Below, one piece after another: positions 4,416 to 16,819 of a DNA stretch of 64,000 nt. The notes under the pieces are model-generated. The model searched no databases and was not told the DNA's origin. It worked only from the letters and a program-made list of their open reading frames with translations. Made by a program: the position numbers and the translations under genes. Origin of the DNA: Escherichia coli (GTDB taxonomy: Bacteria > Pseudomonadota > Gammaproteobacteria > Enterobacterales > Enterobacteriaceae); NCBI RefSeq assembly GCF_030013595.1, contig NZ_CP122768.1. One strand, 5' to 3'. The stretch's first letter is position 1, and each line of letters opens with the position of its first letter.

Positions 4416-4641
4416 ATCAGACTCCTGAGTAGTTTTTTAATTACAAACACCAACAATCTTAGTCAATAATTAATCTAATACCATCAAATAGTTAATCATG
4501 ATTTTTGTTTTGTGATTCTGATTAAGAAAAAGAAAATACCAGACGATAAGACAAAATATCAAGCGTTGTGAAGAAATGTTATGTGCTCTTTTGCGTCTAT
4601 AGTCATGATGTCAAATGAACGCGTTTCGACAGGAAATCATC

Positions 4642-5862
4642 ATGAATAAATATCAGGCAGTGATTATTGGTTTTGGCAAGGCTGGAAAAACATTAGCCGT
4701 CACGCTGGCAAAAGCAGGTTGGCGTGTGGCTCTCATCGAACAATCAAATGCAATGTATGGCGGGACCTGTATTAATATCGGCTGTATCCCAACCAAAACA
4801 TTGGTTCATGACGCACAGCAGCACACAGATTTTGTCCGTGCCATACAGCGTAAAAATGAAGTGGTTAATTTTTTACGTAATAAGAATTTTCATAATCTTG
4901 CGGATATGCCCAATATCGACGTGATCGACGGCCAGGCGGAGTTTATCAATAATCATAGCCTGCGTGTTCATCGGCCTGAGGGAAATCTGGAGATTCATGG
5001 CGAGAAAATTTTTATTAATACCGGTGCACAAACCGTGGTTCCGCCAATTCCTGGAATTACCACCACGCCTGGTGTATATGACAGCACCGGATTACTTAAT
5101 CTAAAAGAATTGCCTGGGCATTTAGGTATTTTGGGCGGCGGATATATTGGCGTTGAGTTCGCCTCTATGTTCGCTAATTTTGGCAGCAAGGTAACCATTT
5201 TAGAAGCAGCTTCGCTGTTTTTGCCTCGGGAAGATCGGGATATTGCTGATAATATCGCGACGATTTTACGCGATCAGGGCGTCGATATTATCCTCAATGC
5301 CCATGTGGAGCGAATCAGTCACCATGAAAATCAAGTGCAAGTGCATAGCGAGCACGCCCAACTGGCGGTGGATGCACTGTTAATAGCTTCCGGTCGTCAA
5401 CCAGCTACCGCTTCGTTACATCCAGAAAATGCCGGTATCGCAGTAAACGAGCGCGGGGCAATTGTCGTTGACAAGCGATTACATACCACCGCAGACAATA
5501 TTTGGGCGATGGGAGATGTTACCGGCGGGCTGCAATTTACTTACATATCACTAGATGATTACCGCATTGTACGTGATGAGTTACTGGGTGAAGGCAAACG
5601 TAGTACTGATGATCGGAAAAATGTGCCTTATTCCGTATTTATGACACCGCCCCTGTCCAGGGTTGGTATGACAGAAGAACAAGCCAGAGAGAGTGGTGCT
5701 GATATTCAGGTGGTGACATTGCCTGTAGCTGCAATTCCGCGCGCCAGAGTGATGAACGATACCCGTGGGGTATTAAAAGCGATTGTTGATAATAAAACCC
5801 AACGTATATTAGGGGCATCACTGCTGTGTGTTGACACGAGAGTATTCAAAACACGCCAATAA
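4642..5862 (+). pseudogene. rclA: rclA (ykgC) 5' portion, truncated by island insertion; 398 native codons plus 8 foreign codons (TRVFKTRQ*)
   Basis: MNKYQAVIIGFGKAGK (FAD-binding GxGxxG) and the GGTCINIGCIPTK redox-disulfide motif. The native sequence ends at ..GASLLCVD (5834). The remaining 42 codons are found at 16583-16711. Confidence 0.9.
5835..5841. repeat. Left junction direct repeat (attL core candidate) CACGAGA
   Basis: The identical 7-mer recurs at 16583-16589, exactly where the rclA reading frame resumes. A TATTCAA motif lies adjacent (5843-5849). Confidence 0.6.
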
Positions 5863-5903
5863 CCTCTTGATTCAATTGAAGTCGAAAATTTTAAGTCAAA
5901 AAT

Positions 5904-5929
5904 CGTATAGCTTAACGTGTAGCTAAAAA
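5904..5929 (+). repeat. Island-internal arm repeat, left copy (CGTATAGCTTAACGTGTAGCTAAAAA)
   Basis: Near-identical (1 mismatch) direct repeat of 16432-16457. Contains a palindromic TAGCTA hexamer (5920-5925). Confidence 0.7.
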
Positions 5930-5987
5930 TGTTTGCTGCAAAAGTATACAATTTTAACCGTTATGACTCCCTGTTATCCGTTATCAA

Positions 5988-6156
5988 GCTGGTGGATGAT
6001 CATGGATAACCCGTTATGGGAATCCCCATATCGGCATCAGGCCCATGCCATAACAAAAACCCCATATTCGTGGGTTTTCTGTGTTGTGGCTATTCTGCCG
6101 TTGCCGTGCTGGTGGATATTTCCGGTATGTGGCTCACCATATCGGCATCACGCCCA
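5988..6156 (+). repeat. Imperfect ~120-bp tandem duplication upstream of the cos-like site
   Basis: GCTGGTGGAT occurs at 5988-5997 and 6108-6117. CCATATCGGCATCA(G/C)GCCCA occurs at 6026-6045 and 6137-6156 (19/20 identical). Confidence 0.65.
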
Positions 6157-6201
6157 CCAGCGCGACGCATTTTTTTAATTTCGCGGGTGTAAAAATTTGA
6201 C

Positions 6202-6216
6202 GGGGCGGGCGGTCCT
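6202..6216 (+). other. Candidate lambdoid cosN-like site (GGGGCGGGCGGTCCT)
   Basis: TTGACG|GGGGCGGGCGGTCCT resembles the lambda cohesive-end region TTACG|GGGCGGCGACCT (recalled). It is flanked by the repeat A(T)TTTCCG(G)TATGTGGCT at 6118-6134 and 6262-6278, and by a GGGAT-UUCG-ATCCC hairpin at 6234-6247. Confidence 0.45.
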
Positions 6217-6479
6217 ATAAGCAATGGGGGGTAGGGATTTCGATCCCCCCTCCTGAATGCAATTTTCCGTATGTGGCTGTGCGGCAATCATACTCGTCAC
6301 ATGTTTTTGACAATAAAAGGCCCGACCGTGAGACTCACAAACAAAAAAGTTACGGAGAAACAGGGGATCGGGCTCGGTTGCCGCTAAATCTATTCAATTA
6401 AAAGAAGATGTCAATAGGGAAAACGAAAAAAAACAATGCTGATATTGTCATAATTTGAACAAAACCACTATATGTAGTT

Positions 6480-6710
6480 TTAGTTCATGAGGTTAGTCGC
6501 TACCAGATGCGTCAATAGTTTTTTGCTATTAATAATCCCTCTTTTTCCATCGGGAGCTTTGCACTTGTCACTACCTGGTAACTCCTGGTGGCGTTCCTGT
6601 TGCAGCACAACGGAAACAGGCGCTGAACACCTGTTAATTTTGCTTGCAGGTTGTTTGATTTCGGCAATGCTGCGGATCATCTCCAGCATATCGGCTTCGG
6701 TGATGGTCAT
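6480..6710 (-). CDS. Hypothetical 76-aa protein (last gene of the satellite late block)
   Basis: ATG preceded by AAGGTG 7 nt upstream on the minus strand. No family recognised. Confidence 0.5.
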   Translation of the reverse strand: MTITEADMLEMIRSIAEIKQPASKINRCSAPVSVVLQQERHQELPGSDKCKAPDGKRGIINSKKLLTHLVATNLMN

Positions 6711-6717
6711 GATTTAC

Positions 6718-6994
6718 ACCTTAGGAAATCTTAGGGGCTGGTTGACACTTTCCGGCTTAAGACCTTAACAAATCTTAACATCGCAGGTTGACACACTTGA
6801 CACTTTTTCGCGAAAAACCTTATCAAACCTTAGCATTTCTAAGCATGGCAACTTGACACTTTTCGCGATTTTTTCGGCTTTTTGACGTGGTAAATCTGGC
6901 GCAAAGCCAGTAACGGCGGGGTTTACAGCGAGGTTGACACTTTTTCGCGTTCAGAGTGTAAAGTGTCAACCTGGCAAGCTGCTCAACTTGACAC
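6718..6994. repeat. Iteron array: TTGACAC repeats interleaved with paired ACCTTA/ATCTTA half-sites
   Basis: TTGACAC at 6742, 6788, 6797, 6853, 6934 and 6988. Variant TTGACGT at 6882. Inverted copy at 6963-6969. Three A(C/T)CTTA pairs with 10-bp spacing at 6718/6728, 6762/6772 and 6817/6827. Confidence 0.85.
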
Positions 6995-7003
6995 TTTTTG
7001 AGG

Positions 7004-7531
7004 TCATTGATGGCCTGATTTTTCCCACTCAGCCAGGGCGTTTAGTCCGGCTTCACTCCAGTTATCCAGCTCATCGGGACAATCACCTGCAACATAGCAG
7101 AGCTCACAACGCAGCATACGAATTGCCAGCCTGGCATTTTCCCGAAAATCATACTGCTCAAAGTAATATTGCCCAGCATAATCCTCAAGGCAGATAGCAC
7201 CATCATCAAGAAATTGCACTTCACAGCATAGTTCCCCGGCTGCATCCTGTACACGCTGCTGTATGTCATTGTCCGTTACTGGTGCAGGGATTTTACCGTC
7301 TCTGGCCTTAACTGCTTTCCAGAACTCGCCCCACGTCATTTCCAGCGTTCTCTCTGGCCACATTTCAGAAACGGTATCTTTTCCCTGTGCTGGTGGGCTG
7401 TTCCGCTGCTCTGTCGCTTCCACATCGATTTTTTTACCGGACATGACCACTTCGCCTTTCTCGATCCAGTCGTAAACTGTCTGGCGGCTTACGCCTTTGT
7501 GTTTGGCATATTCTGCCTTGCTCATAAACAT
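7004..7531 (-). CDS. Nu1/TerS-like N-terminal HTH protein (candidate small terminase or packaging-redirection factor)
   Basis: The N-terminus MSKAEYAKHKGVSRQTVYDWIEKGEVVMSGKKI parallels the lambda Nu1 winged-HTH (MEVNKKQLADIFGASIRTIQNWQEQGMPV, recalled). GAGGGGA RBS. The gene abuts the TTGACAC array. Confidence 0.5.
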   Translation of the reverse strand: MFMSKAEYAKHKGVSRQTVYDWIEKGEVVMSGKKIDVEATEQRNSPPAQGKDTVSEMWPERTLEMTWGEFWKAVKARDGKIPAPVTDNDIQQRVQDAAGELCCEVQFLDDGAICLEDYAGQYYFEQYDFRENARLAIRMLRCELCYVAGDCPDELDNWSEAGLNALAEWEKSGHQ

Positions 7532-7701
7532 GACACTTCCCCTCAGACTGTATTAATGCGCCGGAAAGCGCGTGTATTTAAATCATCCCAGGAACCGTTG
7601 AGCACCAATTAGTTGCGCGAAGTAATCGGCACCAGCGTTCCGAACAATTTCCAACTTAACGTTCTGATCATTGTTTCCTGCTGCAGGGACAATCCCACGA
7701 T

Positions 7702-8355
7702 TCATAGCCAGCGCCCGGATATTTCTTCCAGTTTTTCCAGAGCTGGCTTGCAGGCCGCATCAATAACTTCACGGACCATTCCGGCGAGCTGTTCTTCTTC
7801 TGTCGGCGTTGTTACTTCCACACCTGATGGTTTCCCGCCCTTATCCCATACGCCCAACGGTACGAGCGCAACGTGATCGATAAGAAATGGCGTACCCTCA
7901 ATGAAAAAATTGTCCTCGCCCATTACATCAGGAACTTCTGCCCCACCGGACGCACCACAAAACACAACCGACGGGCTGGTGGATACCTCCCCCCGTGCTT
8001 TCTGGATGTAATCGATGATTTCCTGCCCGTAAATCCGGCATACGCCCCACACCTCGTCACCGCGAATATACGGCAACATGACGGTGCCAATAATGCGCGA
8101 CCGTTCGCCCACGTCTTCAAGGGTTTTGCTTTCGGGATGGTCGATAATGACGGGTACTCCGGCGCAACGTTCCAGGAACTGCGGATTGAGATAAGTTTGC
8201 GGTGAACGCCAGACAAATTCTTTTTCTTCGGCGCGATAGGCCATTCCGGTTCCTGTGATACGCAGGTTAATCAGCCACATGTTGGAAAACTGATAAGGCG
8301 ACGGTAGCTGACCGTCCCGAATCTGCTTTGCCGCCTCAATTTCTGTTAAAAGCAT
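7702..8355 (-). CDS. Putative prohead protease/scaffold-like protein (GPO / DUF2213-like)
   Basis: 217 aa. Segment order VIIDHPE .. IGTVMLPYIRGDEVWGVCRI .. VSTSPSV .. LIDHVALVPLGVWD parallels P2 gpO (RINLEH .. KWALFAKI .. VYTSMEI .. YLVGLAVTDDPA, recalled). The similarity is weak. Confidence 0.35.
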   Translation of the reverse strand: MLLTEIEAAKQIRDGQLPSPYQFSNMWLINLRITGTGMAYRAEEKEFVWRSPQTYLNPQFLERCAGVPVIIDHPESKTLEDVGERSRIIGTVMLPYIRGDEVWGVCRIYGQEIIDYIQKARGEVSTSPSVVFCGASGGAEVPDVMGEDNFFIEGTPFLIDHVALVPLGVWDKGGKPSGVEVTTPTEEEQLAGMVREVIDAACKPALEKLEEISGRWL

Positions 8356-8419
8356 AATGTCCCCCGGTTATAAGCAATAAGCCCCACCAAATCCGGCAGG
8401 GCTGAAATCAGCACGTTTT

Positions 8420-9004
8420 TCATGCCCCCGCGAGGCTTGCAACGTTAATTTTAACCAGGCGACGGGGAGGGATTTTGAAAGCACTAAGCCAGTTATTCGG
8501 ATCCCCCTGATATTCAGTAATCCGCCGTCCGGCTTCATCCATTCTTACGGTTTTACGCAAATAGCCCGGCGTATTTTCCACAGCCCACTGAACACTGTCT
8601 TTTGCAGCCTGGTAAATCTGATCTTCCAGCACCGCCAGCGTTGCAGAATCTGAAACGGAACGAATATCCACATCACTGAATTTTTTAGCCAGCTTCTGTG
8701 CACCAATTAATGCACGCTTGCGGTAATCCATCGACTTTTCACCAGCAAACGGGGCTGGAGCGCGACGGCCCATATTGCTGTATGCGGAATCCGCTTTAGC
8801 CTGGGCTTCTGCCAGTGAGGATTCATCTTCGACTGACGCGACGATGTTTTTATTCGCGTCATCCTCGTCCGCTTTTGTGAAATCCTGTGCGGGGATCGCA
8901 TTCAGAATTTCGATAATCTCCTGCGGAGTGCTGCCCTGCGACTCTGACAGAGCGTTAACCACCTCCATCAGTTTTAATCGCAAATCTTCTTTGCTTGCTG
9001 GCAT
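8420..9004 (-). CDS. Hypothetical 194-aa protein with acidic/helical N-half (possible scaffold or capsid-size factor)
   Basis: ATG at 9002-9004 with an AGGTGG RBS (the ORF-track GTG start lies 9 nt upstream). Located between the protease-like gene and a small RBS-bearing ORF. No family recognised. Confidence 0.5.
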   Translation of the reverse strand: MPASKEDLRLKLMEVVNALSESQGSTPQEIIEILNAIPAQDFTKADEDDANKNIVASVEDESSLAEAQAKADSAYSNMGRRAPAPFAGEKSMDYRKRALIGAQKLAKKFSDVDIRSVSDSATLAVLEDQIYQAAKDSVQWAVENTPGYLRKTVRMDEAGRRITEYQGDPNNWLSAFKIPPRRLVKINVASLAGA

Positions 9005-9043
9005 TTTTACCACCTCTCTTTTTTCACCAAAAAATCACGACCA

Positions 9044-9223
9044 TCAGGCCGGACGTTCTACGGGATAAAGCGCCCGCTGCATTAAACGCCGGGCGACCTC
9101 ATGAATGCTCGGAGCAATCCCCAGCGGAGAATTGCGGCGTTCCTCGTCCTGGATGCGCTGTAATGCTTCAATCTGATCACGAGCGAGTAAAACGGGTTTC
9201 ACGCTGGCTTTTCTCATAGTCAT
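9044..9223 (-). CDS. Hypothetical 59-aa protein
   Basis: MTMRKASVKPVLLARDQIEALQRIQ... The start at 9221-9223 is preceded by AGGAG 5 nt upstream. First ORF after the bidirectional terminator region. Confidence 0.45.
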   Translation of the reverse strand: MTMRKASVKPVLLARDQIEALQRIQDEERRNSPLGIAPSIHEVARRLMQRALYPVERPA

Positions 9224-9352
9224 ATCTCCTGAACAAAACAATGATTATGATTGCACAAACTGAAATAACGATCTACATCATTGCAATTTATGAAACAATA
9301 ACGCATGATGATCGCGTTCTTCCCATTGACTTCAATCACCTGAAAAACAAAG

Positions 9353-9381
9353 CCCGCAACACTTCTGGCTGCGGGTTTTTT
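9353..9381 (+). terminator. Intrinsic terminator on the + strand with no convincing + strand gene upstream
   Basis: CCCGCA (9353-9358) pairs with TGCGGG (9370-9375), followed by TTTTTT. Confidence 0.5.
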
Positions 9382-9389
9382 ACTGGCAC

Positions 9390-9413
9390 AAAAAAGCCGG
9401 GAAAAATCCCGGC
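9390..9413 (-). terminator. Intrinsic terminator after the PerC-like gene
   Basis: GCCGGGA (9396-9402) pairs with TCCCGGC (9407-9413). On the minus strand the hairpin is followed by a T6 run (A-run at 9390-9395 on +). Confidence 0.65.
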
Positions 9414-9418
9414 CTCCG

Positions 9419-9706
9419 TCACTGACTGCAATTTTTCGATCCAGGGTATTTCCTGAATGCCTTACCATTGGGCTGATGTAATCCCATCCCGGCATGTGCC
9501 CGGCTGATGGTTTCGCGCATTTCCCCGAAATTATCCTGCCTTGCTGGTGGGCGTGCTGCCTTGCGGATACATTCCGCGCGACGTTTTGCCGCCTGTTCCC
9601 GTGCCTTGTCATCATTCGCCAGCATGATGACCTCAGCCCACCGCGCCGCCGCTCTCCGGTACAGACCACGCGCTTCCAGTGCTTCCGCTTTGCTGTCGTG
9701 AATCAT
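9419..9706 (-). CDS. PerC/Pch-like small transcriptional activator
   Basis: 95 aa. The N-terminal motif KAEALEARGLYRRAAARWAEV fits the LE.xG.xRRAA.RW signature I recall for the PerC family. ATGA overlap with the upstream ProQ-like gene. Confidence 0.5.
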   Translation of the reverse strand: MIHDSKAEALEARGLYRRAAARWAEVIMLANDDKAREQAAKRRAECIRKAARPPARQDNFGEMRETISRAHAGMGLHQPNGKAFRKYPGSKNCSQ

Positions 9707-10245
9707 GCGCCTGTTTTCTCCTTTGCTGCCCGGCGCTGACGTTTGCGCTTCTCATTCAGCGCCACCAGCCGCGTTTCTGCGTCCTGTTGTTCCTGTGGTG
9801 TCACCTCGCCGCACGGCTGGCCTTTCAGGTCGTAGCGTACCCCACCAGCCATTAAGGCGCGGTAATAGCGCGGACACTGCGCATAAGATGCCAGCGTCGC
9901 ACGCAATGCCCCTGGACCGAATGCCAGCCCCCTGACGGCGAGATCCTGCATCAGGTCGTCGAATATCCCCACCTTAAGCGGCTTCGGTGCTTCCCGGCTG
10001 AATAATTCAGGCCACAACTCAGTGAGGCGGTTAACGCGCCTGCGGTTTTTGCGCTGGCGTTTGGTCATATGCCGCCACGGTGTCGCCCCTGTGGGCTTCT
10101 GCTGCGCTTTCTGGTTACCGGGCATCACTTTATGCGCCGATGTGGTTTTATCCTGCTCCTGCGCCGCCTGCGTCGTTTTCTGCGGCGTGCCGTAAATGCC
10201 TTTCGGTTTTCTGTTAATGGTCAGCTTAGTCATGCTTTGCCCCAT
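9703..10245 (-). CDS. ProQ/FinO-domain RNA-binding protein
   Basis: LTELWPELFSREAPKPLKVGIFDDLMQDL...ALRATLASYAQCPRYYRALMAGGVRYDLKGQPCGEVTPQE aligns residue-for-residue in pattern with the ProQ N-terminal domain (FPHCFS..RPLKIGIFQDL..LRSALRLYTSSWRYL..RVDLDGNPCGEL, recalled). Confidence 0.75.
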   Translation of the reverse strand: MGQSMTKLTINRKPKGIYGTPQKTTQAAQEQDKTTSAHKVMPGNQKAQQKPTGATPWRHMTKRQRKNRRRVNRLTELWPELFSREAPKPLKVGIFDDLMQDLAVRGLAFGPGALRATLASYAQCPRYYRALMAGGVRYDLKGQPCGEVTPQEQQDAETRLVALNEKRKRQRRAAKEKTGA

Positions 10246-10326
10246 CGTTTTTACTGGTTGCTACGTTGCCCAACGGCACTGACACAACATTCTGTTTTCA
10301 TTTTTAACATTCCTGATTTTTTAATT

Positions 10327-10708
10327 CCTCACCTGCTGCACAGTGAAAATTTATGAAGTTAATAACAATATGATTTTAAATGTATTTTTAAGTACTCACT
10401 TTTTAATCCTTATATATACGCAAAAGTGAGGTAAATAGTTAAGTTTTAGTTAATATCTTGCATGGTGTGTTTTTTAACCTACCTGTTATTTTTATTACCT
10501 CATTTCTATTAACTCACCATTCCTCACTTTTGTTCCTCACTTTTTATTATTCTTGTTCTGCTCCTCAGTCGTTTTCTTTATTGTTGTAATCTGTTGTTTT
10601 GCAATGTGTTTTTAACTCCTCACTTTTTGACCTATATACAGGTGAGAAAGTGAGGAGTGGCGTTGATTTTTTGTTAAATTACCCGCCATCCTCACTTTTG
10701 CTCCTCAC
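10327..10708. repeat. Replication-origin iterons (CCTCAC(T)TTT) in AT-rich DNA directly 3' of the replicase gene
   Basis: CCTCAC at 10327, 10522, 10535, 10618, 10690 and 10703. Inverted GTGAGG at about 10426 and at 10650. Variants ACTCAC (10394) and CCTCAT (~10498). Long T/A tracts lie between them. Confidence 0.8.
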
Positions 10709-10711
10709 TTT

Positions 10712-12127
10712 TTACAGTGGGCGCACATAATCACCGTCAATAGCGATTACGCCGTCGCTTTCCAGCTTGTACAGCCAGCGCCGGAAGTTTTTCATTTCAT
10801 ACCCCAGCTTTTTCATATCATCGCGGAGAAGGGCGATAGTGCACGCCTCCCCGTGTGCTGTTCGCGTTCTGATGCACTGCCATAGCGCAGCGTGATTTTC
10901 CGTCTTGTTCCCGGCCTCCTCGATGCGTTCCAGTTCAACAGGTGGGCGCGGCTTATCCACAACCACCAGCGACGTGATTAACTCCCCGTCAGTGTCGGTA
11001 AAAAGCTCCACCACGCGTAAATCATATGCAGCCTCTTTCAGTTCCTCCGCGTCCTTCATTTTGGTGCAGGAGATAACCAGGGCTTCACTGTCCGCACCTT
11101 CACGGCGAATACGGTATTCAGCGTCCAGAGATGCACGAAATGCACTGGAACCACGCGCCCCTTTTGTTTCATCCTTGCCGGAATGGTGAACCACCAGTAC
11201 CGTGGCCCCTGTGCGTCGTTTCAGTTCGTCACATCCACGGATAAACGCCCCCATATCCCGCGCGTCATTTTCATCATTACCGCCAAAGCAACGCGCCAGC
11301 GTATCCAGAATAATCATGCGTACCGGTTTACCCGTTTCCCGTTCAACCTGACGGGAAGCGATGACCATTTCATCAACATCAAGCGGGACCGCCGGAAAAA
11401 TCGGGCGGTTTACCAGGTACAGATTTTTCACCCGTTCATCATTAACGATTTCCCATGCTTTGATACGACGAGGAACACCGATCCCGCCCTCACCAACGAC
11501 ATACATAACCGCACCATGTACAACCCTGCGACCTCCCCAGTGGCGACCAGTGGCAACATGACACGCCCAGGAACACGCGAGGAACGATTTATAGGAACCG
11601 CTCGCGCCGTATGTGCTGCACAACGAATTAGCCGGAATCACGCCCTTAACGACATAATCAAGCTGTGTGTCGTATCCTGCAGATCCAATACTCATTGGTA
11701 GCGTGGTTTTTCGCTGGCTGTATTGCTCGTCAGTAAGTATTTCCCCGCGCTCTGCCTGTTCGCGGATCCGTTGCAGGTAGTCGTGCCAGTTCTCCAGCTT
11801 CTGGCTGTGCATTCCCTCAGGGTAATAATTCGCATCCCGTACACCTGCCGCCGCCAGTTTTTGCCCGATGGCATTAATATTTGACGGCTTGATGTGGCCT
11901 GCCTTGTACAGCCGGACACAATAGCGACCATCGTCGATAATTTTCAGGTCTGCCAGTTCGTCAAGCTGGCTGTCTCCCAGCCATACAGGCGGAACATTGT
12001 CGCCAGCAAGTCGCCCGTCCTGTTCCTGCCATTGTTTCGCGTGCGCCCAGGCATCACTACCCGCAAAAATAATGACTTCGGTCATTTTGTCGTGTGGCTG
12101 TTTTTTTAAGTTCGGTGCCAGTTTCAT
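10712..12127 (-). CDS. Satellite replicase: RepA/AAA_25-type (RecA-fold) ATPase with N-terminal primase-like region and C-terminal wHTH
   Basis: 471 aa. Walker A YGASGSYKS, Walker B MIILDTLARCFGG, and VLVVHHSGKDETKGARGSSA (DnaB/RepA-like motif). Iterons follow the stop codon. Confidence 0.75.
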   Translation of the reverse strand: MKLAPNLKKQPHDKMTEVIIFAGSDAWAHAKQWQEQDGRLAGDNVPPVWLGDSQLDELADLKIIDDGRYCVRLYKAGHIKPSNINAIGQKLAAAGVRDANYYPEGMHSQKLENWHDYLQRIREQAERGEILTDEQYSQRKTTLPMSIGSAGYDTQLDYVVKGVIPANSLCSTYGASGSYKSFLACSWACHVATGRHWGGRRVVHGAVMYVVGEGGIGVPRRIKAWEIVNDERVKNLYLVNRPIFPAVPLDVDEMVIASRQVERETGKPVRMIILDTLARCFGGNDENDARDMGAFIRGCDELKRRTGATVLVVHHSGKDETKGARGSSAFRASLDAEYRIRREGADSEALVISCTKMKDAEELKEAAYDLRVVELFTDTDGELITSLVVVDKPRPPVELERIEEAGNKTENHAALWQCIRTRTAHGEACTIALLRDDMKKLGYEMKNFRRWLYKLESDGVIAIDGDYVRPL

Positions 12128-12423
12128 TTTGTGCCCCTGAATGCGTTAATCATGTTTTTCATTTTCTGAATATTTGCCCGTGCCTTTGCGTTGCTGGTGG
12201 GCTGTTTGCGTGGTGTGGCCTGTATCAGTGAAAAATCACGCCGGAACTGATAAACAGGCATCACGCAGTCGTAGCTGTACCCATCACGGCGGTAAGTAAC
12301 GCACCGTCCGGCAATACTTTTAATCGTTACCGTGCCGCCGTAGTTATCCCGGAAAATATCGCCGGGGCGGATTTCAGGCCGAGGGAGACCACTGGCAGTA
12401 AAGCCAGAATTTTTCTTTTTCAT
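12124..12423 (-). CDS. Small conserved protein (DUF4222-like)
   Basis: 99 aa. IRPGDIFRDNYGGTVTIKSIAGRCVTYRRDGYSYDCVMPVYQFRRDF resembles DUF4222 proteins of P4-like prophages (recalled). ATGA overlap with the replicase. Confidence 0.45.
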   Translation of the reverse strand: MKKKNSGFTASGLPRPEIRPGDIFRDNYGGTVTIKSIAGRCVTYRRDGYSYDCVMPVYQFRRDFSLIQATPRKQPTSNAKARANIQKMKNMINAFRGTK

Positions 12424-12427
12424 GGTT

Positions 12428-12628
12428 TTATTTTCCTGTCAGCAGTTCCGGTTTTATTTCCGCACGAATACAGAGTTCAGAAAAAAATTCAGGAGAACCA
12501 ACAATCTCATTACTTTTCAGTCGGCATTGTGATTTCACTTTCCCTTTATCCAGGTAAACCAGTATGCGTCCGGTGAAATCATCTGGCACACTCAGGGTAA
12601 TTGTCATTGTTGCTTGCTGATTATCCAT
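12428..12628 (-). CDS. Hypothetical 66-aa protein, one copy of a ~45-aa DxFTG module
   Basis: VPDDFTGRILVYLDKGKVKSQCRLKSNEIVGSPEFFSELCIRAEI. 8-nt overlap with the upstream gene. Confidence 0.55.
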   Translation of the reverse strand: MDNQQATMTITLSVPDDFTGRILVYLDKGKVKSQCRLKSNEIVGSPEFFSELCIRAEIKPELLTGK

Positions 12629-12986
12629 GATTCACCCCCTGAATAACCTGATAACCGCAACTGGTCAGCAATTCGATAAATTCCGGCAGTGTTCCGAAAC
12701 AGCAATCATCTCGCAGCCGTTCTCGGGATACTTCAACGCCGTTTTCGTAGTGACTCACCATGCGTCCGGTAAAATGCAGATCATCATCGTGATGGCTCGT
12801 TAACGGCTTAATCAGTCGCGCACGTTCTGCCAGCTCCAGCAATGCTTCAACGCTTCCGGCAATTGCACCATCCGGCAGGTGATAATTACTTGCCACGCGT
12901 CCATTCTCCACGTTAACCAGTAGCTGCCCGGTGAATTTCTCATCAAACTGAATGCTGTTAAGGTCAGAAATTGACAGGTTAATCAT
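12621..12986 (-). CDS. Hypothetical 121-aa protein, two copies of the same DxFTG module
   Basis: FDEKFTGQLLVNVENGRVASNYHLPDGAIAGSVEALLELAERARL and DDDLHFTGRMVSHYENGVEVSRERLRDDCCFGTLPEFIELLTSCGY. 8-nt overlaps on both sides. Confidence 0.55.
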   Translation of the reverse strand: MINLSISDLNSIQFDEKFTGQLLVNVENGRVASNYHLPDGAIAGSVEALLELAERARLIKPLTSHHDDDLHFTGRMVSHYENGVEVSRERLRDDCCFGTLPEFIELLTSCGYQVIQGVNHG

Positions 12987-13344
12987 GGCGTACCTCCTGG
13001 CGAATACGGGCAGCGAATACCATCACGCAGCCATCAGGAGATTGCTGGCGTGCTTCCTGTTCGCTGGTGGCCACGATGTGAATCACGCGCGGTTGTGCGG
13101 TGCTCAGGGCGATAAAACGCCAGATAAAATTGTTTTCGCATTTCTGAATAAACAGCGTGTTTTCTTCGCGCCCTTTCCATGTTGCCGAGATATAGCCCAT
13201 GCCATTGAGCATCTCGCAGGCATCAACCAGCGTATCAGCGGCTACGTGTACAGTGTTTTTACCGTCAGCTATGCAATCACGGTGCACCGCCAGGAAGGTG
13301 TATATAAATTTAGGGTGAGTTTGGGTATGCTGTGTTCCAGCCAT
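12979..13344 (-). CDS. Icd-like (host cell division inhibitor-like) protein
   Basis: 121 aa from the ATG at 13342-13344 (GAGGT RBS): MAGTQHTQTHPKFIYTFLAVHRD ... NNFIWRFIALSTAQPRVIHIVATSEQEARQQSP..VFAARIRQE. This is the FIW.F.A / SE.EAR signature of Icd-like proteins (recalled). It is the only credible part of the 478-aa ORF. Confidence 0.55.
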   Translation of the reverse strand: MAGTQHTQTHPKFIYTFLAVHRDCIADGKNTVHVAADTLVDACEMLNGMGYISATWKGREENTLFIQKCENNFIWRFIALSTAQPRVIHIVATSEQEARQQSPDGCVMVFAARIRQEVRHD

Positions 13345-13446
13345 AATCGTTACCTCATTTAACGGTTTGGTTAGAAGCCCCGTTACTGCTCCAACAGTGC
13401 GGGGCTTCGTCGTTTCAATTGCTGAATTGCATGTATCAGCCCTTGT

Positions 13447-13499
13447 GGTATTCAGATTACATTTTGGTGAATACCATTTCAAGTCTTTTTTGGTATTCA
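13447..13499. promoter_or_regulatory. Operator-like repeats in the divergent region between the Icd-like operon and the RHH gene
   Basis: GGTATTCA (13447-13454), inverted TGAATACC (13468-13475), and GGTATTCA again (13492-13499). A 9-bp-stem hairpin GAAGCCCCG..CGGGGCTTC lies at about 13373-13407. Confidence 0.45.
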
Positions 13500-13543
13500 C
13501 TTTTGTATTACACTGCATCCCGTTATTAATCGGAGGTGCAAAC

Positions 13544-13849
13544 ATGTCCACGAGTTCTGTTAACAATAAGTCACAGCAACTGAATGCCAGATTTCCACAT
13601 GAAGTAGTGAGTGGCATTGAGGCATCCCTACAGCCAGGGGAAACTAAAGCGAATTTTATAGTTACGGCTGTACGCGGTGAGATCGCCCGCCGCCAGGCAG
13701 AAGGAAGCGGAGAAAACCCCCTGGTTTCTTCGCTCGATGCGCTGGCGCAGGTGGAAAAAATCGGAGTCAAAGCTGCCGAGGAGATCGGGCAGCTCGTCAC
13801 CGTCGCACGTGAAGAACTCCAGCGCCGCAAGGCCAAAGAATCAGAATAA
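13544..13849 (+). CDS. YlcI/YnfO-family (DUF3950, ribbon-helix-helix-like) protein, candidate island regulator
   Basis: 101 aa from the ATG at 13544 (GGAGG RBS 7 nt upstream). KSQQLNARFPHEVVSGIEASL..KANFIVTAVRGEI resembles K-12 YlcI (NIRFPNQMIEQINIAL..GNFSAWVIEAC, recalled). It is one of very few + strand genes in the island. Confidence 0.6.
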   Translation: MSTSSVNNKSQQLNARFPHEVVSGIEASLQPGETKANFIVTAVRGEIARRQAEGSGENPLVSSLDALAQVEKIGVKAAEEIGQLVTVAREELQRRKAKESE

Positions 13850-13906
13850 TAACTATCATCGCCGTGGTGTGAGGAACTCCGGCGCATTGCTTTACAGGTA
13901 CACAGA

Positions 13907-14107
13907 ATGACCAACAAAGAATCAACCAAAACACCATCACCAACCCGGAAGAGACGTCGCAAAAATATGACGCACGAGCATGAATCAGACAGATTCGCGC
14001 CGTGTGCGTTTGTCCTTGAGACGTTCCTTAAAGAGTACAGGCGCACAAAATTAGGGCCACATACCTGGAAAACATCGCGACATAGCGATATTAAAGAGCA
14101 GGAATAG
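13907..14107 (+). CDS. Possible basic 66-aa protein
   Basis: ORF only. Weak RBS, Lys/Arg-rich N-terminus, lies upstream of the + strand terminator. Confidence 0.25.
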   Translation: MTNKESTKTPSPTRKRRRKNMTHEHESDRFAPCAFVLETFLKEYRRTKLGPHTWKTSRHSDIKEQE

Positions 14108-14216
14108 CCCACCAGCAAGTCAGCATATTCACCATAATGACCCTCGGTTAAACCTAGAGTCATTGGTGCAAACCTGACACATTGCCCACCAGCCAGCAAA
14201 TCGCTATGATATTTGG

Positions 14217-14268
14217 GCTTATGTTTAGTGTTTTCCCATTGGCGACCGCCCCCGGTCGCCTTTGTTTT
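14217..14268 (+). ncRNA. Candidate ~50-nt small RNA (promoter plus strong terminator, no ORF)
   Basis: TTGCCC (14182-14187), a 17-nt spacer, then TATGAT (14205-14210). The terminator has GGCGACCG (14241-14248) pairing with CGGTCGCC (14253-14260), a CCCC loop, and TTTGTTTT. Confidence 0.3.
14241..14268 (+). terminator. Strong intrinsic terminator ending + strand transcription before alpA
   Basis: 8-bp GC-rich stem, 4-nt loop, U-tract. Confidence 0.75.
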
Positions 14269-14364
14269 GCCCGTTATCCGGCAATTGTGGCGCTTCGCCA
14301 CACGGTTGATATAATTCCCCTGCACTGATCCATTTTTTTCGCAGCAGGTTAATTGTTCGCAAGG

Positions 14365-14389
14365 GCGCTCCGGCAACGGGGCGCTTTTT
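14365..14389 (+). terminator. Second + strand intrinsic terminator
   Basis: GCGCTCC (14365-14371) pairs with GGGGCGC (14378-14384; one G-U pair), followed by TTTTT. Confidence 0.5.
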
Positions 14390-14419
14390 GTTATGTTCAT
14401 CGCGTTACGCCTCACACCA

Positions 14420-14626
14420 TTACGCAGCCGTTCCGCGCGCTTCTTCCTCGCGCTCTTTCAGCCAGGCCAGCACTTCATCTTCATACCAGCCAACACGACG
14501 CAGACCGATTTTGAAGCCTTTCGGGAATTTTCCGGCGTTGATCATGTCCTGTAGCGAACTGTCTGCCTTGATGCGCAGAATATTTTTTACTTCCTGACGG
14601 GTAAGTATTTTTCTGATTGTTTCCAC
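14420..14626 (-). CDS. alpA: AlpA-family transcriptional regulator / excisionase-like HTH protein
   Basis: 68 aa. ILTRQEVKNILRIKADSSLQDMINAGKFPKGFKIGLRRVGWYEDEVLAWL is the typical AlpA/CP4-57 regulatory motif. Confidence 0.85.
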   Translation of the reverse strand: METIRKILTRQEVKNILRIKADSSLQDMINAGKFPKGFKIGLRRVGWYEDEVLAWLKEREEEARGTAA

Positions 14627-14697
14627 TATGTTTTACCTCGTTAATCCGGCGTATTCCGGTGATAAATACGGTAAAACAGGGCAGGGCGGGAAAAACA

Positions 14698-14731
14698 GTA
14701 CCCACCGTTTTAAAACGGTACCCACTGTTTT
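14698..14731. promoter_or_regulatory. Direct repeats upstream of alpA (GTACCCAC(C/T)GTTTT x2 around a CCGTTTTAAAACGG palindrome)
   Basis: Copies at 14698-14711 and 14718-14731. They lie between the upstream terminator and the alpA start. Confidence 0.45.
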
Positions 14732-14760
14732 TATCTCATTGATTACGCTTTTCTTTCTGC

Positions 14761-14791
14761 AAAAAAATAGCGACCGCAAAGGGCCGCTATT
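14761..14791 (-). terminator. Intrinsic terminator separating the int-orf unit from alpA
   Basis: The minus strand reads AATAGCGGCCCTTTGCGGTCGCTATTTTTTT, a hairpin followed by a T7 run. Confidence 0.6.
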
Positions 14792-14795
14792 GTGA

Positions 14796-15026
14796 TTACC
14801 GTTTCCACTTCTTAGGTCGCCCACCGCATTTAAGGCTGGTGGGCCTCAGCACCTTGTCGATGCTTTCAGCCAGATTTTTCGATGCACCACGCGAGCGCAA
14901 AAAACTGACTACCTCGTGTTTTGTGGGGGCTGTTGATTTGTCTTCCGGATCGTATGTTGACCAGAATTCACGATTTGCCATTAACGCCAGTTGCAGCCCT
15001 TCGCCGTAGGCGGTGGTATTTTGCAT
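14796..15026 (-). CDS. Hypothetical 76-aa protein downstream of int
   Basis: ORF with a basic C-terminus (GGRPKKWKR). No family recognised. Confidence 0.45.
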   Translation of the reverse strand: MQNTTAYGEGLQLALMANREFWSTYDPEDKSTAPTKHEVVSFLRSRGASKNLAESIDKVLRPTSLKCGGRPKKWKR

Positions 15027-15124
15027 AATAGAATTTTCATATACTCCGGCCTTGTCGTTAAATTTGTGGCAATTATACGATGGTTTGGCATGGTTTGCAT
15101 CGCTTTTACTGGCTTTTTGTACAG

Positions 15125-16366
15125 CTACACGGCACGGATACCCCTTTTACCGCTGGCTATGGTCACTCCGGTAGCTGCAGCCTCCACAAATTCACCCCAC
15201 CAGCGCATAAGCACCACGCGCTTTTCCAGGTAGTTACTTCGGTTATATGCCCGCCTTACCTCGTTCGTGTCCACGTGTGCGAGTGCGGCCTCGATTACGT
15301 CCGGTTCGAATCCTTCCTCGTTCGCTGCTGTGCTGAATATGGCGCGTAATCCGTGAGACACCAGCACACCAGCGTAACCCATCCGGCGTAATGCAGCGTT
15401 AGCGGTCTGGCTGCTCATTGGCAGCATCGGATTTTTAAGGCTGGGAAAAACGTGTTCCCTGTGTGCGCTGATTGGCTTCATGGTTTCCAGTACAGCCATA
15501 GCCTGACCGCAAAGGGGGATCACATGGTCACGGCGCATCTTCATGCGTCCGGCTGGAATCGTCCAGGTTTCGGCATCGAGATCTATTTCTTCCCAGCGTG
15601 CGGCGGCTGCTTCGGCTGGGCGTGCTACGGTCAGCAGTTGCCACTCAATCAGCAATCTGGTTTGCCGTTCTATGCTGGCGACCGATAAATCGTGCATTAG
15701 CTGCGGTAGCTGTTCCGGTCGGATGGTTGGCATGTGCTTTTTGGTGGGTGAGGGGAATGCCTTGCGGACGTTCGCGGCGGTGTTGATGTCAATCAGCCCA
15801 CTGTTGGCGGCAAAATCCATCACTTCATTGATGCGCTGCAAAACGCGTTTCAGAGTTTCCAGGTTGCCGCGTGCTTTAATGGGGGTGAGTATCTCAACAA
15901 AGCGGCGAGCGGTGAGGGTATCTATTGGCGTGTTTCCGATGTACGGGAATACGTATTTTTCCAGGGATCGCCAGATATCCTTAATCGTGTTGTAAGCCAG
16001 ATTCTGGCCTTTTTTCATCTCGTACCAGTCCGAGGCAACTTTTTCGAACGTGTTGCCCTTTTTCCGGCTCTCTGCTTCACGTTTCCGGCGTTCATGGTCC
16101 TGTGGGTCAGTTCCCTTTGCTATTAGTGACCTGTATTCATTCCGTCGCTCTCTGGCATCAGACAGGGAAACATCATTCAGCGATCCAAGGCTGATAATAG
16201 TCCGTTTTTTATCTGCCGGGCGGTAGTACGTAAAACGCCATATTTTTGATCCGGAGGGCTTCACCAGAAGAAATAATCCTCCGCCATCCTGCAGGGTGTA
16301 TTCCTTTTCCCCTGGTCGTGCGTTTTTGATCTCCGTAATGGTTAGTGGGGTGGTTTTTCGTGCCAT
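15125..16366 (-). CDS. int: P4-type tyrosine integrase (DUF4102 arm-binding N-domain)
   Basis: 413 aa. N-terminus TEIKNARPGEKEYTLQDGGGLFLLVKPSGSKIWRFTY. Catalytic region ...LTVARPAEAAAARWEEIDL...HGLRAIFSTAANE...ALAHV..NEVRRAYNRSNYLEKR (R..HxxR..Y). Confidence 0.92.
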   Translation of the reverse strand: MARKTTPLTITEIKNARPGEKEYTLQDGGGLFLLVKPSGSKIWRFTYYRPADKKRTIISLGSLNDVSLSDARERRNEYRSLIAKGTDPQDHERRKREAESRKKGNTFEKVASDWYEMKKGQNLAYNTIKDIWRSLEKYVFPYIGNTPIDTLTARRFVEILTPIKARGNLETLKRVLQRINEVMDFAANSGLIDINTAANVRKAFPSPTKKHMPTIRPEQLPQLMHDLSVASIERQTRLLIEWQLLTVARPAEAAAARWEEIDLDAETWTIPAGRMKMRRDHVIPLCGQAMAVLETMKPISAHREHVFPSLKNPMLPMSSQTANAALRRMGYAGVLVSHGLRAIFSTAANEEGFEPDVIEAALAHVDTNEVRRAYNRSNYLEKRVVLMRWWGEFVEAAATGVTIASGKRGIRAV

Positions 16367-16383
16367 GTTTTTTTACCCATCGG

Positions 16384-16457
16384 TAGCTATATGCCTGGTC
16401 GTAGCTATACGGCTTTAGCTACACGCTGGACCGTATAGCTAAACGTGTAGCTAAAAA
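16384..16457. repeat. Integrase-proximal arm-site cluster: five palindromic TAGCTA hexamers plus the right copy of the 26-bp arm repeat
   Basis: TAGCTA at 16384, 16402, 16416, 16436 and 16448. CGTATAGCTAAACGTGTAGCTAAAAA at 16432-16457 matches 5904-5929. Confidence 0.7.
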
Positions 16458-16504
16458 ATCCGGTTATAACCCTATCTTACCGATTCAATCCGGCGACTGA
16501 AAAC

Positions 16505-16540
16505 AACAAAAAAGCCCGTTAATCAGTAAATTAACGGGCT
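16505..16540 (-). terminator. Strong hairpin/terminator just inside the right island end
   Basis: AGCCCGTTAAT (16513-16523) pairs perfectly with ATTAACGGGCT (16530-16540). On the minus strand it is followed by TTTTTTGTTGTTTT. Confidence 0.65.
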
Positions 16541-16582
16541 TTCAATAGGTTACCGATGCTGTCCGATATTCAATTTGGTCGG

Positions 16583-16589
16583 CACGAGA
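16583..16589. repeat. Right junction direct repeat (attR core candidate) CACGAGA
   Basis: Identical to 5835-5841. A TATTCAA motif lies at 16567-16573. Confidence 0.6.
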
Positions 16590-16711
16590 TGATCAATATA
16601 GTGAAAATGGTGATGGATGCCGGGCTGCCTTATAGCATATTACGCGATCAGATATTTACTCATCCGTCGATGAGCGAATCACTCAATGATCTATTTTCAT
16701 TAGTCAAATAA
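16583..16711 (+). pseudogene. rclA: rclA 3' fragment (last 42 codons plus stop)
   Basis: HEMINIVKMVMDAGLPYSILRDQIFTHPSMSESLNDLFSLVK* is the C-terminal interface-domain segment, with the HPxxxE dyad, of the oxidoreductase begun at 4642. Confidence 0.9.
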
Positions 16712-16819
16712 ACTCAAAATCAGACGCCAGAACAAATATTCTGGCGTCTCAGAGAAAAGAATCTTATTAATTCCCTGTTACTTTATAACTTCTTAATCAC
16801 TTCATTGATGGTATTTTAT

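Follow-up and report, generated by a model that had tools for sequence, protein, structure and literature searches.

A stretch of 64,000 nt from Escherichia coli (RefSeq assembly GCF_030013595.1, contig NZ_CP122768.1; hereafter the window, numbered from its first letter) contains a 10,748-bp element (5842-16589) that interrupts rclA and bears every feature of phage-inducible chromosomal islands (PICIs) that can be tested on a sequence; the corresponding tests for capsid-forming PICIs (cfPICIs), P4-like satellites and the Rpp family were negative. The account that we consider probable as a whole is that of a PICI of the E. coli int-alpA-rep lineage that occupies a secondary site in rclA, exploits a helper phage of the Rac-SA53 type and deploys its late genes in the manner proposed below. 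The island class is already known, with the lineage annotated in RefSeq and relatives published, and what we did not find described in the literature searched is the rclA site and the late module, which combines a split head protease/scaffold with a cassette made of a winged-helix protein and a repeat array.

The assignment follows the criteria of Fillol-Salom et al. 2018. The element displays the gene order of Gram-negative PICIs, with the integrase, alpA and repA genes all on the minus strand (Table 1), and iterons forming a putative origin lie immediately 3' of the initiator gene. Its length falls within the range of about 8-15 kb, there are no structural or lysis genes save for a protease-fold protein and its partner domain, and the island possesses a specific attachment (att) site of its own, the tRNA-Pro/yejM locus, the present copy being located in the secondary site in rclA. 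The PICI model of SatelliteFinder (de Sousa et al. 2023) calls for at least four of five components, namely integrase, regulator, primase-replicase, capsid morphogenesis and terS, of which int, alpA and the replicase are present. Scans of the open reading frames (ORFs) of the element against Pfam, PHROG and NCBIfam detected no portal, large terminase subunit (TerL), capsid, tail or lysis/holin genes, and no ORF matched Psu, Sid, Delta, epsilon or the P4 alpha-primase in Pfam or PHROG; the major capsid, portal, TerL and head-tail adaptor/connector genes that a cfPICI would encode were likewise not detected. These profile scans bear out the absences reported in an initial annotation of the window, made from the sequence alone, and its reading of the element as a PICI-like satellite is supported by the gene order, the size and the published front end of EcCIATCC25922. 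The lambda-like cos candidate of the same annotation fared otherwise, as no match to lambda cosN (GGGCGGCGACCT) with up to 2 mismatches was found in 5842-7700, in a search limited to this cos type. Within the element, the lone cosN match (14814-14825) falls in a small ORF and was dismissed as being at chance level.

In a megablast search of positions 5700-16750 against 5,426 complete E. coli genomes, island homology spanned positions 5835 to 16593 of the window, and a query made of the joined flanks found rclA uninterrupted in 5,092 of these 5,426 genomes. To the right of the element, 24.9 kb of the window are matched with 100 % identity by two pig isolates. One of these, the near-isogenic HCP5S3_I2, has flanks 99.8-100 % identical, the left one matching the window at 99.93 % identity over 5,835 nt, and carries an intact rclR-rclA-rclB-rclC locus and no island. 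Because this near-isogenic strain retains an uninterrupted rclA, the entry of the island into the gene is, to judge from the sequences, recent. The borders of homology and the empty site of HCP5S3_I2 validate the 10.7-kb element inside rclA that was initially proposed; the empty-site join suggested along with it is 4 nt too short (303 nt vs 307 nt) and out of frame, because the CTCC to the left of the core is missing. The window outside the element consists of core chromosome (fdeC, ecp, pao), with no tRNA gene and no prophage in the remainder of the 64 kb. In RefSeq, the truncated gene is annotated as an rclA pseudogene in ETEC6335 and U90.

The element is bounded by two copies of CACGAGA, the right one at 16583-16589, at the positions initially given. 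The 7-bp repeat was rejected as stand-alone evidence, its count in the window not exceeding chance (3 copies vs 5.8 expected), and it gains meaning from the comparison with relatives rather than from its own frequency. The right end of the element, TGGTCGGCACGAGA, is the reverse complement of the tRNA-Pro 3' end, with the sequence that this end has at the cognate site in ETEC6335. When the junctions are compared, CACGAGA emerges as the sole block common to the attP of the element, the tRNA-Pro attB and rclA: the deduced attP and the tRNA attB have 17 bp in common (TTTGGTCGGCACGAGAG), and the rclA site (gttgactccCACGAGAtgat) has only CACGAGA in common with attP. We infer that CACGAGA is the strand-exchange (overlap) region. 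Arm-type repeats (CGTRTAGCTAAA) are found inside both ends of the element, in keeping with the Arm-DNA-bind_3 domain of the integrase. At the edge of the element, the strong hairpin upstream of int probably shields this gene from outside transcription.

The closest relatives of the island, 97-98 % identical over 82-89 % of the query, adjoin tRNA-Pro between yejO and yejM rather than rclA. The integrase, which has the three domains and the tRNA 3'-end target of the P4 type, is 99.8 % identical to WP_000101918.1, an accession found at tRNA-Pro as well as in rclA of ETEC6335 and in rclA of U90. Junction searches recovered the rclA left junction in 3 genomes and the right junction in 4 genomes and one divergent relative, whereas the same attP arm occurs at tRNA-Pro in about 110 places; given this disparity, rclA is, on the genomes compared, a rare secondary site of an integrase whose cognate target is the tRNA-Pro 3' end (proL, yejO/yejM locus). 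A second copy of the attP arm is present in 3 of the 4 rclA carriers, and that of ETEC6335 was verified to be at tRNA-Pro. Eight att sites of E. coli PICIs have been published, with yejM among them and rclA not (Fillol-Salom et al. 2018, PMC6092414, Table S1), and we found no relevant report of rclA as an integration site in the literature searched.

The sequence of intact rclA is gttgaCTCCCACGAGAtg, and that of the left junction in the window is gttgaCACGAGAgt. The rclA junction of U90 is the exact product expected of conservative recombination; the window has lost 4 nt (CTCC) to the left of the core, the rclA copy of ETEC6335 3 nt, and a copy at the tRNA site 1 nt. Losses of 1, 3 or 4 nt at the left edge of the core are thus seen in three of the four left junctions compared (window, 5830-5842; locus L001, 3000-3008; locus L005, 1610-1617; locus L006, 16148-16157), and all right junctions are exact. 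One possible origin of these micro-deletions is imprecise or abortive recombination where the integrase cleaves. The U90 island (L006, 16157-27195) has an integrase of the same accession and the same rclA junctions, together with another late module that comprises a single-stranded DNA-binding protein (SSB), a major capsid protein, a head decoration protein and a 'terminase small subunit', and the relationship between the two islands reflects either module exchange or two independent insertions.

The late block encodes a 217-aa DUF2213 protein and a 194-aa protein, both of which correspond to a single head protein of phages (phrog_6216), the former matching this profile at 115-315 and the latter at 405-544. 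The DUF2213 protein, which has the assemblin/T4 gp21 prohead-protease fold, common to herpesvirus proteases, is 54 % identical to residues 1-220 of the Rac-SA53 head protein, and the 194-aa protein is 64 % identical to residues 295-423 (BLASTP). Both parts are contained in one protein in Rac-SA53, Actinobacillus pPE4, Pantoea PdC23, Klebsiella Chronis, RothC/D and Yersinia vB_YenM. In the phage module, the order of genes is small terminase subunit (TerS; Terminase_2), TerL (Terminase_6N), portal, MuF-like protein, phrog_6216 gene, phrog_6268 and major capsid protein, so that the phrog_6216 gene occupies the usual slot of the head protease/scaffold. Judging from these matches, the two satellite genes are the two halves of a helper-type head protease/scaffold gene in reversed order, and we propose that the 194-aa protein is a scaffold or targeting domain. 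H73, S127 and D160 are the same in all 34 DUF2213 homologues compared, and H161 in nearly all. A stand-alone form of about 223 aa is conserved in E. coli, Citrobacter, Salmonella, Enterobacter, Klebsiella and Pantoea, which argues that the DUF2213 gene is not a broken gene. The three late proteins yielded no sequence match in the PDB, and DUF2213 in connection with satellites returned nothing relevant from the literature searched.

RefSeq names near-identical homologues of the 194-aa protein 'NUDIX hydrolase' (among them the one at 9271-9855 of locus L010). There is no NUDIX domain in the 194-aa protein of the window, and some full-length phage homologues have one at the N terminus, from which the name was probably carried over.

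The last core gene of the island encodes a 175-aa satellite-specific protein in which a winged helix at the N terminus (aa 1-43) is joined by a disordered linker to a C-terminal alpha/beta domain resembling double-stranded RNA-binding domains (dsRBDs). Among its homologues, the first 42 residues are almost invariant and the remainder is variable. The N-terminal domain is winged-helix and TerS-like in the way of Rpp proteins, its fold class being common to the DNA-binding domains of TerS and to RppC; the terS-like signal consists of a weak PHROG match over 42 residues, and phmmer searches of the PDB, including RppC (6HLK, 6HN7), produced no match at E <= 1. No homologue was found by tblastn in 50,697 phage records, which disfavours a TerS borrowed from a phage. 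Homologues are distributed across Enterobacterales; they also occur in many IMG/VR contigs of about 9-17 kb, where they mostly sit close to one end. In one source, a Pantoea homologue is called 'Repressor'. The one large IMG/VR contig with the gene that was inspected (L047) was rejected as a phage, as it contains a satellite beside an unrelated P2-like prophage, and no terminal direct repeats were found in 80 IMG/VR loci.

Directly downstream of this gene lies an array of TTGACACTT repeats, with six exact copies in 6742-6996 versus one elsewhere in the 64 kb; a seventh copy, with one mismatch (7530-7538), overlaps the beginning of the 175-aa gene. Gene and array occur together in five E. coli elements as well as in IMG/VR contigs, at protein identities from 99 % down to about 39 %. 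Every relative examined has both, an island of O104:H4 with a different replicase and upstream module included; a few homologues are accompanied by a variant motif. The AAAGTGTCAA array was not found in the Rpp-type PICIs examined. We also considered mimicry of a pac site of the helper and rejected it, as the AAAGTGTCAA motif is not clustered in the terminase region of Rac-type phages. The 175-aa protein probably binds the adjacent AAAGTGTCAA array, for which we propose the role of a candidate packaging (pac-like) site, and our best guess is that the two constitute a packaging-specificity cassette because of the rpp/terS-like position and because one half of the protein, the DNA-binding one, is conserved whereas the other varies. 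The late part of the initial annotation, namely a DUF2213-like protein, a 194-aa protein and an iteron array, withstood this scrutiny, with the DUF2213 domain, the phrog_6216 matches and the exact repeats behind it; of the Nu1-like helix-turn-helix protein, the helix-turn-helix stands, in the sense of the broad winged-helix class of Xis, TerS and Rpp, and homology to Rpp or TerS by sequence does not. Copies of a second short motif, YTAAGRTTT (such as CCTTAACAAATCTTA), are interspersed among the repeats of the array (6713-6836).

The pair of DUF2213 and 194-aa genes occupies 47 places in 33 of the 5,426 genomes, and 89 genomes contain the Rac-SA53-type head module. The two overlap in at least 14 genomes vs 0.54 expected (60 of the 89 head-module genomes covered; hypergeometric P = 2e-17), a statistic that ignores clonality and is inflated by shared ancestry, many carriers being related enterotoxigenic E. 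coli (ETEC) from pigs. Carriers come from pig, goat, cow, otter, baboon and water. Homology and co-occurrence together indicate that the likely helper is a Rac-SA53-type lambdoid phage with a Terminase_2/Terminase_6N module. The type of its terminase suggests headful packaging, and a headful helper fits the absence of lambda cosN from the island.

In several strains, the satellite and the candidate helper are near chromosomal neighbours. Strain cq9, for instance, has a full Rac-type phage with intR, xisR, recET and the head module at ttcA (locus L091, 18527-49901) and, about 7 kb from it, a DUF2213-type island with a different integrase at smrA (L091, 220-11502). A satellite embedded in its helper was considered and rejected, the spacing of about 33 kb in cq9 being explained by the neighbouring att sites smrA and ttcA. 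RefSeq labels the portal of Rac-type phages 'anti-CBASS protein Acb1 family protein' or 'DUF1073' (L004, 5079-6515; L091, 42777-44213), and the Rac-SA53 copy is a portal according to Pfam Phage_portal_3 and phrog_146. Two records labelled 'DH5alpha' (4.83 Mb; H190 and H197) contain a complete Rac-SA53-type head module, as does E. coli W, and the label looks doubtful.

These observations can be combined into a putative life cycle. In this strain, the P4-type integrase recombined attP with a pseudo-att site in rclA sharing only CACGAGA with it, splitting the rclABC operon and leaving a 4-nt deletion at the left junction. Upon induction of alpA by the helper phage, the island would excise, replicate from the iteron origin beside repA and be packaged into helper-made particles. 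The DUF2213 and 194-aa proteins may enter, or compete in, procapsid assembly of the helper, with capsid size redirection or helper interference as the outcome, and the 175-aa protein would bind the AAAGTGTCAA array and mark island DNA for the helper terminase, as a functional counterpart of Rpp and cos or of a satellite TerS and pac. A wider proposal, which we regard as possible and decidedly tentative, is that of a distinct PICI lineage specialized on Rac-type headful lambdoid phages, in which the split and reordered protease/scaffold remodels or sabotages helper capsids and the winged-helix/dsRBD-like protein on the AAAGTGTCAA array recruits the helper terminase, the cassette being conserved across Enterobacterales and the capsid-hijack module swapped according to the helper.

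Several points weigh against this account. Induction, excision, replication and packaging are predictions from the sequence, and the copy in the window may excise less readily owing to the 4 nt lost beside the core. There is no helper prophage in the 64-kb window, and clonality weakens the co-occurrence signal. In the late block, the compatibility of H73, S127, D160 and H161 with a catalytic centre is read from their conservation only, and the C-terminal residues of the DUF2213 protein past aa 215 are, in this copy, unlike those of most relatives. By sequence, the 175-aa protein resembles neither Rpp nor any TerS; its N-terminal domain is closest in fold to excisionases and BldC-type regulators binding repeat arrays, and the protein could be a regulator.

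The last of these points leads to an alternative in which the element is of the PICI type but its late module serves anti-phage interference or regulation, with the DUF2213 and 194-aa proteins poisoning head assembly of the helper and the 175-aa protein acting on the repeat array as a transcription factor or a recombination directionality factor. Its fold matches and the Pantoea name 'Repressor' are in line with such a role, as is the common interference of PICIs with their helpers (PMC6092414). However, about 900 bp separate the array from the att core, and further genes intervene between the array and the end of the element in O104:H4, which speaks against a directionality factor; furthermore, the cassette sits where rpp or terS does in related PICIs, and the late module has no PADLOC match. 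Interference and capsid redirection are not mutually exclusive. We consider the purely regulatory or interfering module unlikely and favour the packaging and capsid functions outlined above.

The same late genes could also be viewed as debris: if the element were what is left of a full prophage after decay, the DUF2213 and 194-aa genes would be pieces of a disrupted head gene, which would agree with their being one gene in phages, with their reversed order and with the small pseudogene remnants seen in some relatives (RefSeq). This is very improbable, because all ORFs of the element are intact and most of its proteins have counterparts of 99-100 % identity in other genomes, where they are found at different att sites. 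Moreover, the stand-alone DUF2213 form is conserved across six enterobacterial genera, the compact layout of 10-11 kb is met again at several places in the chromosome with its att sites intact, and there are no traces of portal, TerL, capsid, tail or lysis genes in what is otherwise the layout of published PICIs. A P4-like satellite or a cfPICI in place of a classical PICI appears just as hard to accept. The P4-type integrase, AlpA, the Icd-like gene, the size of about 10-11 kb and the presence of one head-morphogenesis homologue, the protease, would be in keeping with it, but the P4 hallmarks (Psu, Delta, Sid and alpha-primase) are missing and the replicase is of the RepA/AAA_25 type, whereas capsid, portal, TerL and connector genes, expected of a cfPICI, are absent, as is cosN of the lambda type, the only type covered by the cos search.

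The gene calls of the front end were checked with Pfam, PHROG, NCBIfam and the mapping of RefSeq coding sequences (CDSs). AlpA is the master activator in characterised Gram-negative PICIs (PMC6092414, PMC11773190), and the 21-bp repeat upstream of alpA, identified by its sequence, may be an operator for a helper signal or for AlpA itself. The longest ORF of the element (478 aa, 12979-14415) was rejected as a gene, given that only its last ~160 codons match the Icd-like protein of the closest relative; the Icd-like domain occupies aa 430-473 of this ORF. The N terminus of RepA has a weak primase-like match (phrog_864 on aa 3-135). Directly 3' of repA, the motif CCTCACTTT occurs in seven exact copies (10423-10711) and nowhere else in the 64 kb, and it recurs in L001, where the RepA allele is identical, and is missing from L005, where the allele differs. 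PerC homologues are accessory genes of E. coli PICIs (PMC6092414). Nearly all the initial calls for this region proved sound: the P4-type integrase, the small ORF with its terminator and AlpA were confirmed by Pfam, CDS mapping and the hairpin, the Icd-like, DUF4222, RepA/AAA_25, ProQ/FinO and PerC genes by profile matches, the two 'DxFTG' proteins as phrog_340 paralogues, and the iterons 3' of the replicase by the CCTCACTTT copies.

Beyond the array, the left end of the island holds a small ORF and two direct repeats of about 110 nt (Table 1). In cq9 and HNSQ2209, RefSeq annotates a 59-aa protein that is comparably placed, downstream of the 175-aa gene, the likeness being one of position only. 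Of the two repeats, unit A, unlike unit B, folds better than its shuffles (z -2.7 to -3.6); neither the repeats nor the whole element gave an Rfam match above threshold, the sub-threshold matches being at chance level. Ten small or unknown proteins of the element matched no PADLOC defence model. In the O104:H4 island (L009, 6429-8385), an AAA-ATPase and a DUF4435 gene directly follow the 175-aa gene and array, where the equivalent position in the window is non-coding; we take this pairing to resemble the PARIS defence system.

Table 1. Features of the rclA-borne island and its junctions, ordered by position in the window
Feature	Position	Strand	Remarks
5' part of rclA	4615-5862	+	truncated at codon ~408, followed by 7 element-encoded codons
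Left CACGAGA core (attL)	5835-5841	+	rclA CTCC (4 nt) missing just left of it
Two tandem arm-type repeats CGTRTAGCTWAA	5904-5927	+	family also at right end; presumed integrase arm-binding sites, left attP arm
Non-coding left end, two ~110-nt direct repeats	5965-6190	.	76 % identical to each other
Small ORF, 76 aa in longest reading	6480-6710	-	downstream of array; no family match
Repeat array TTGACACTT (AAAGTGTCAA)	6742-6996	.	six exact copies, five in one orientation, one inverted
175-aa satellite-specific protein	7004-7531	-	last core gene
DUF2213 protein, 217 aa	7702-8355	-	homologous to N-terminal half of Rac-SA53 head protein
194-aa protein	8420-9004	-	aa 63-191 homologous to C-terminal domain (aa 295-423) of Rac-SA53 head protein
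57-aa conserved hypothetical protein	9044-9217	-	100 % identical to WP_001224090.1 of ETEC6335
Terminator-like hairpin	9353-9375	-	after perC; divides accessory genes from late block
PerC-family transcriptional activator	9419-9706	-	Pfam PF06069, E 2e-32; accessory/virulence-regulator gene
ProQ/FinO-family protein	9703-10233	-	Pfam PF04352, E 8e-24; start from RefSeq homologue
Iteron field, origin-like	10387-10714	.	CCTCACTTT in both orientations around AT-rich DNA, directly 3' of repA
RepA-type replicative helicase/initiator (AAA_25)	10712-12127	-	Pfam AAA_25, 2e-44; phrog_2850 over full length
DUF4222 protein	12124-12423	-	Pfam PF13973, 2.7e-24
Two overlapping phrog_340 genes	12428-12986	-	66 aa, 12428-12628; 121 aa, 12621-12986, two modules; DNA repeat family
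Icd-like (cell-division-inhibitor-like) gene	12979-13458	-	NF033153 on last ~45 aa; phrog_1743/6196; RefSeq CDS mapping; start approximate
YlcI/YnfO-family gene	13544-13849	+	tblastn from ETEC6335 annotation, 76 % identity; sole plus-strand gene of the element
AlpA-family regulator	14420-14626	-	Pfam PF05930
21-bp repeat, inverted (also direct)	14691-14732	.	65-105 bp upstream of alpA
76-aa ORF and terminator-like hairpin	14766-15026	-	ORF 14796-15026, hairpin 14791-14766
P4-type tyrosine integrase	15125-16366	-	Pfam Arm-DNA-bind_3, Phage_int_M and catalytic domain
Right attP arm repeats TTTAGCTACACG / CGTATAGCTAAA / CGTGTAGCTAAA	16414-16455	.	repeat search
Hairpin and T-run	16510-16543	-	strong; element edge, upstream of int
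Right end TGGTCGGCACGAGA	16576-16589	+	element-borne tRNA-Pro 3' end, terminating in right CACGAGA core (attR)
Displaced rclA 3' end	16590-16711	+	rclB and rclC next, now 10.7 kb from rclA promoter

For the host, the insertion means that RclA lacks its C-terminal 33 residues and that rclBC are 10.7 kb away from the operon promoter. Because RclA is shortened and rclB and rclC are cut off from the promoter, the strain is predicted to be less resistant to hypochlorite and other reactive chlorine. More broadly, the island documents the use of a secondary site by a PICI integrase and offers a natural read-out of its CACGAGA crossover core, and it leads us to propose the pairing of Rac-SA53-type prophages with DUF2213-type PICIs and a hijack module different from Rpp/cos, SaPI (Staphylococcus aureus pathogenicity island) TerS/pac, cfPICI capsids and P4 Sid. 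The 175-aa protein and its array are widespread in Enterobacterales and in satellite-sized IMG/VR contigs, and the function of this cassette would explain the packaging of a large group of unclassified 'Type B/C' PICI-like islands.

Among characterized islands, EcCIATCC25922 (PMC6092414), of about 11 kb, has the cognate target, tRNA-Pro beside yejM, in common with the window island, and the same front end, comprising a 413-aa P4-type integrase, a 76-aa ORF, AlpA, the Icd-like gene, the divergent YlcI/YnfO gene, DUF4222, the replicase and the origin. The late modules differ, that of EcCIATCC25922 encoding SSB, a major capsid protein, a head decoration protein and a 'terminase small subunit' (the RefSeq name), whereas the window island has ProQ/FinO, PerC, the split protease/scaffold and the 175-aa protein with the AAAGTGTCAA array instead. 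EcCIMP1 (Pick et al. 2025, PMC11773190) is similarly a PICI of E. coli that encodes int, AlpA, PerC and a primase; it resides at a tRNA gene and is mobilised by a non-lambda helper, with which it has a few morphogenesis-like genes in common. It differs in its size (20 kb), its site (tRNA-Thr) and its helper (Kapi1), and its published gene list, compared here by description, mentions no DUF2213 gene and no counterpart of the 175-aa protein. Compared with the Rpp and cos of EcCICFT073-type PICIs (PMC6739421), the 175-aa protein lacks similarity to RppC and the island lacks lambda cosN. For Rpp-type islands, a review from the Feiss lab puts forward one R3-like site and reports that R sequences are not repeated (PMC9026076), in contrast to the multi-copy array in the window, and the presumed helper here is a headful phage.

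With the phrog_6216 head protein of Rac-SA53 and of Certevirus (PdC23, Chronis), the satellite has the DUF2213 domain in common. In the phages, this is one protein of 430-553 aa encoded between the MuF-like and capsid genes, whereas the satellite has two genes, in reversed order and without the linker. Satellites of other groups offer parallels at the level of procapsid assembly: CpmB of SaPIs reportedly mimics the C terminus of the helper scaffold, and Ccm of SaPIbov5 is said to be a capsid homologue. CpmA and CpmB, Ccm and Sid of P4 are likewise satellite proteins that could join helper procapsid assembly. They are unrelated to the late proteins of the island, which are candidates for such a role and which add a protease-fold domain; compared with CpmB, the 194-aa protein copies the C-terminal domain of a helper-type head protein.

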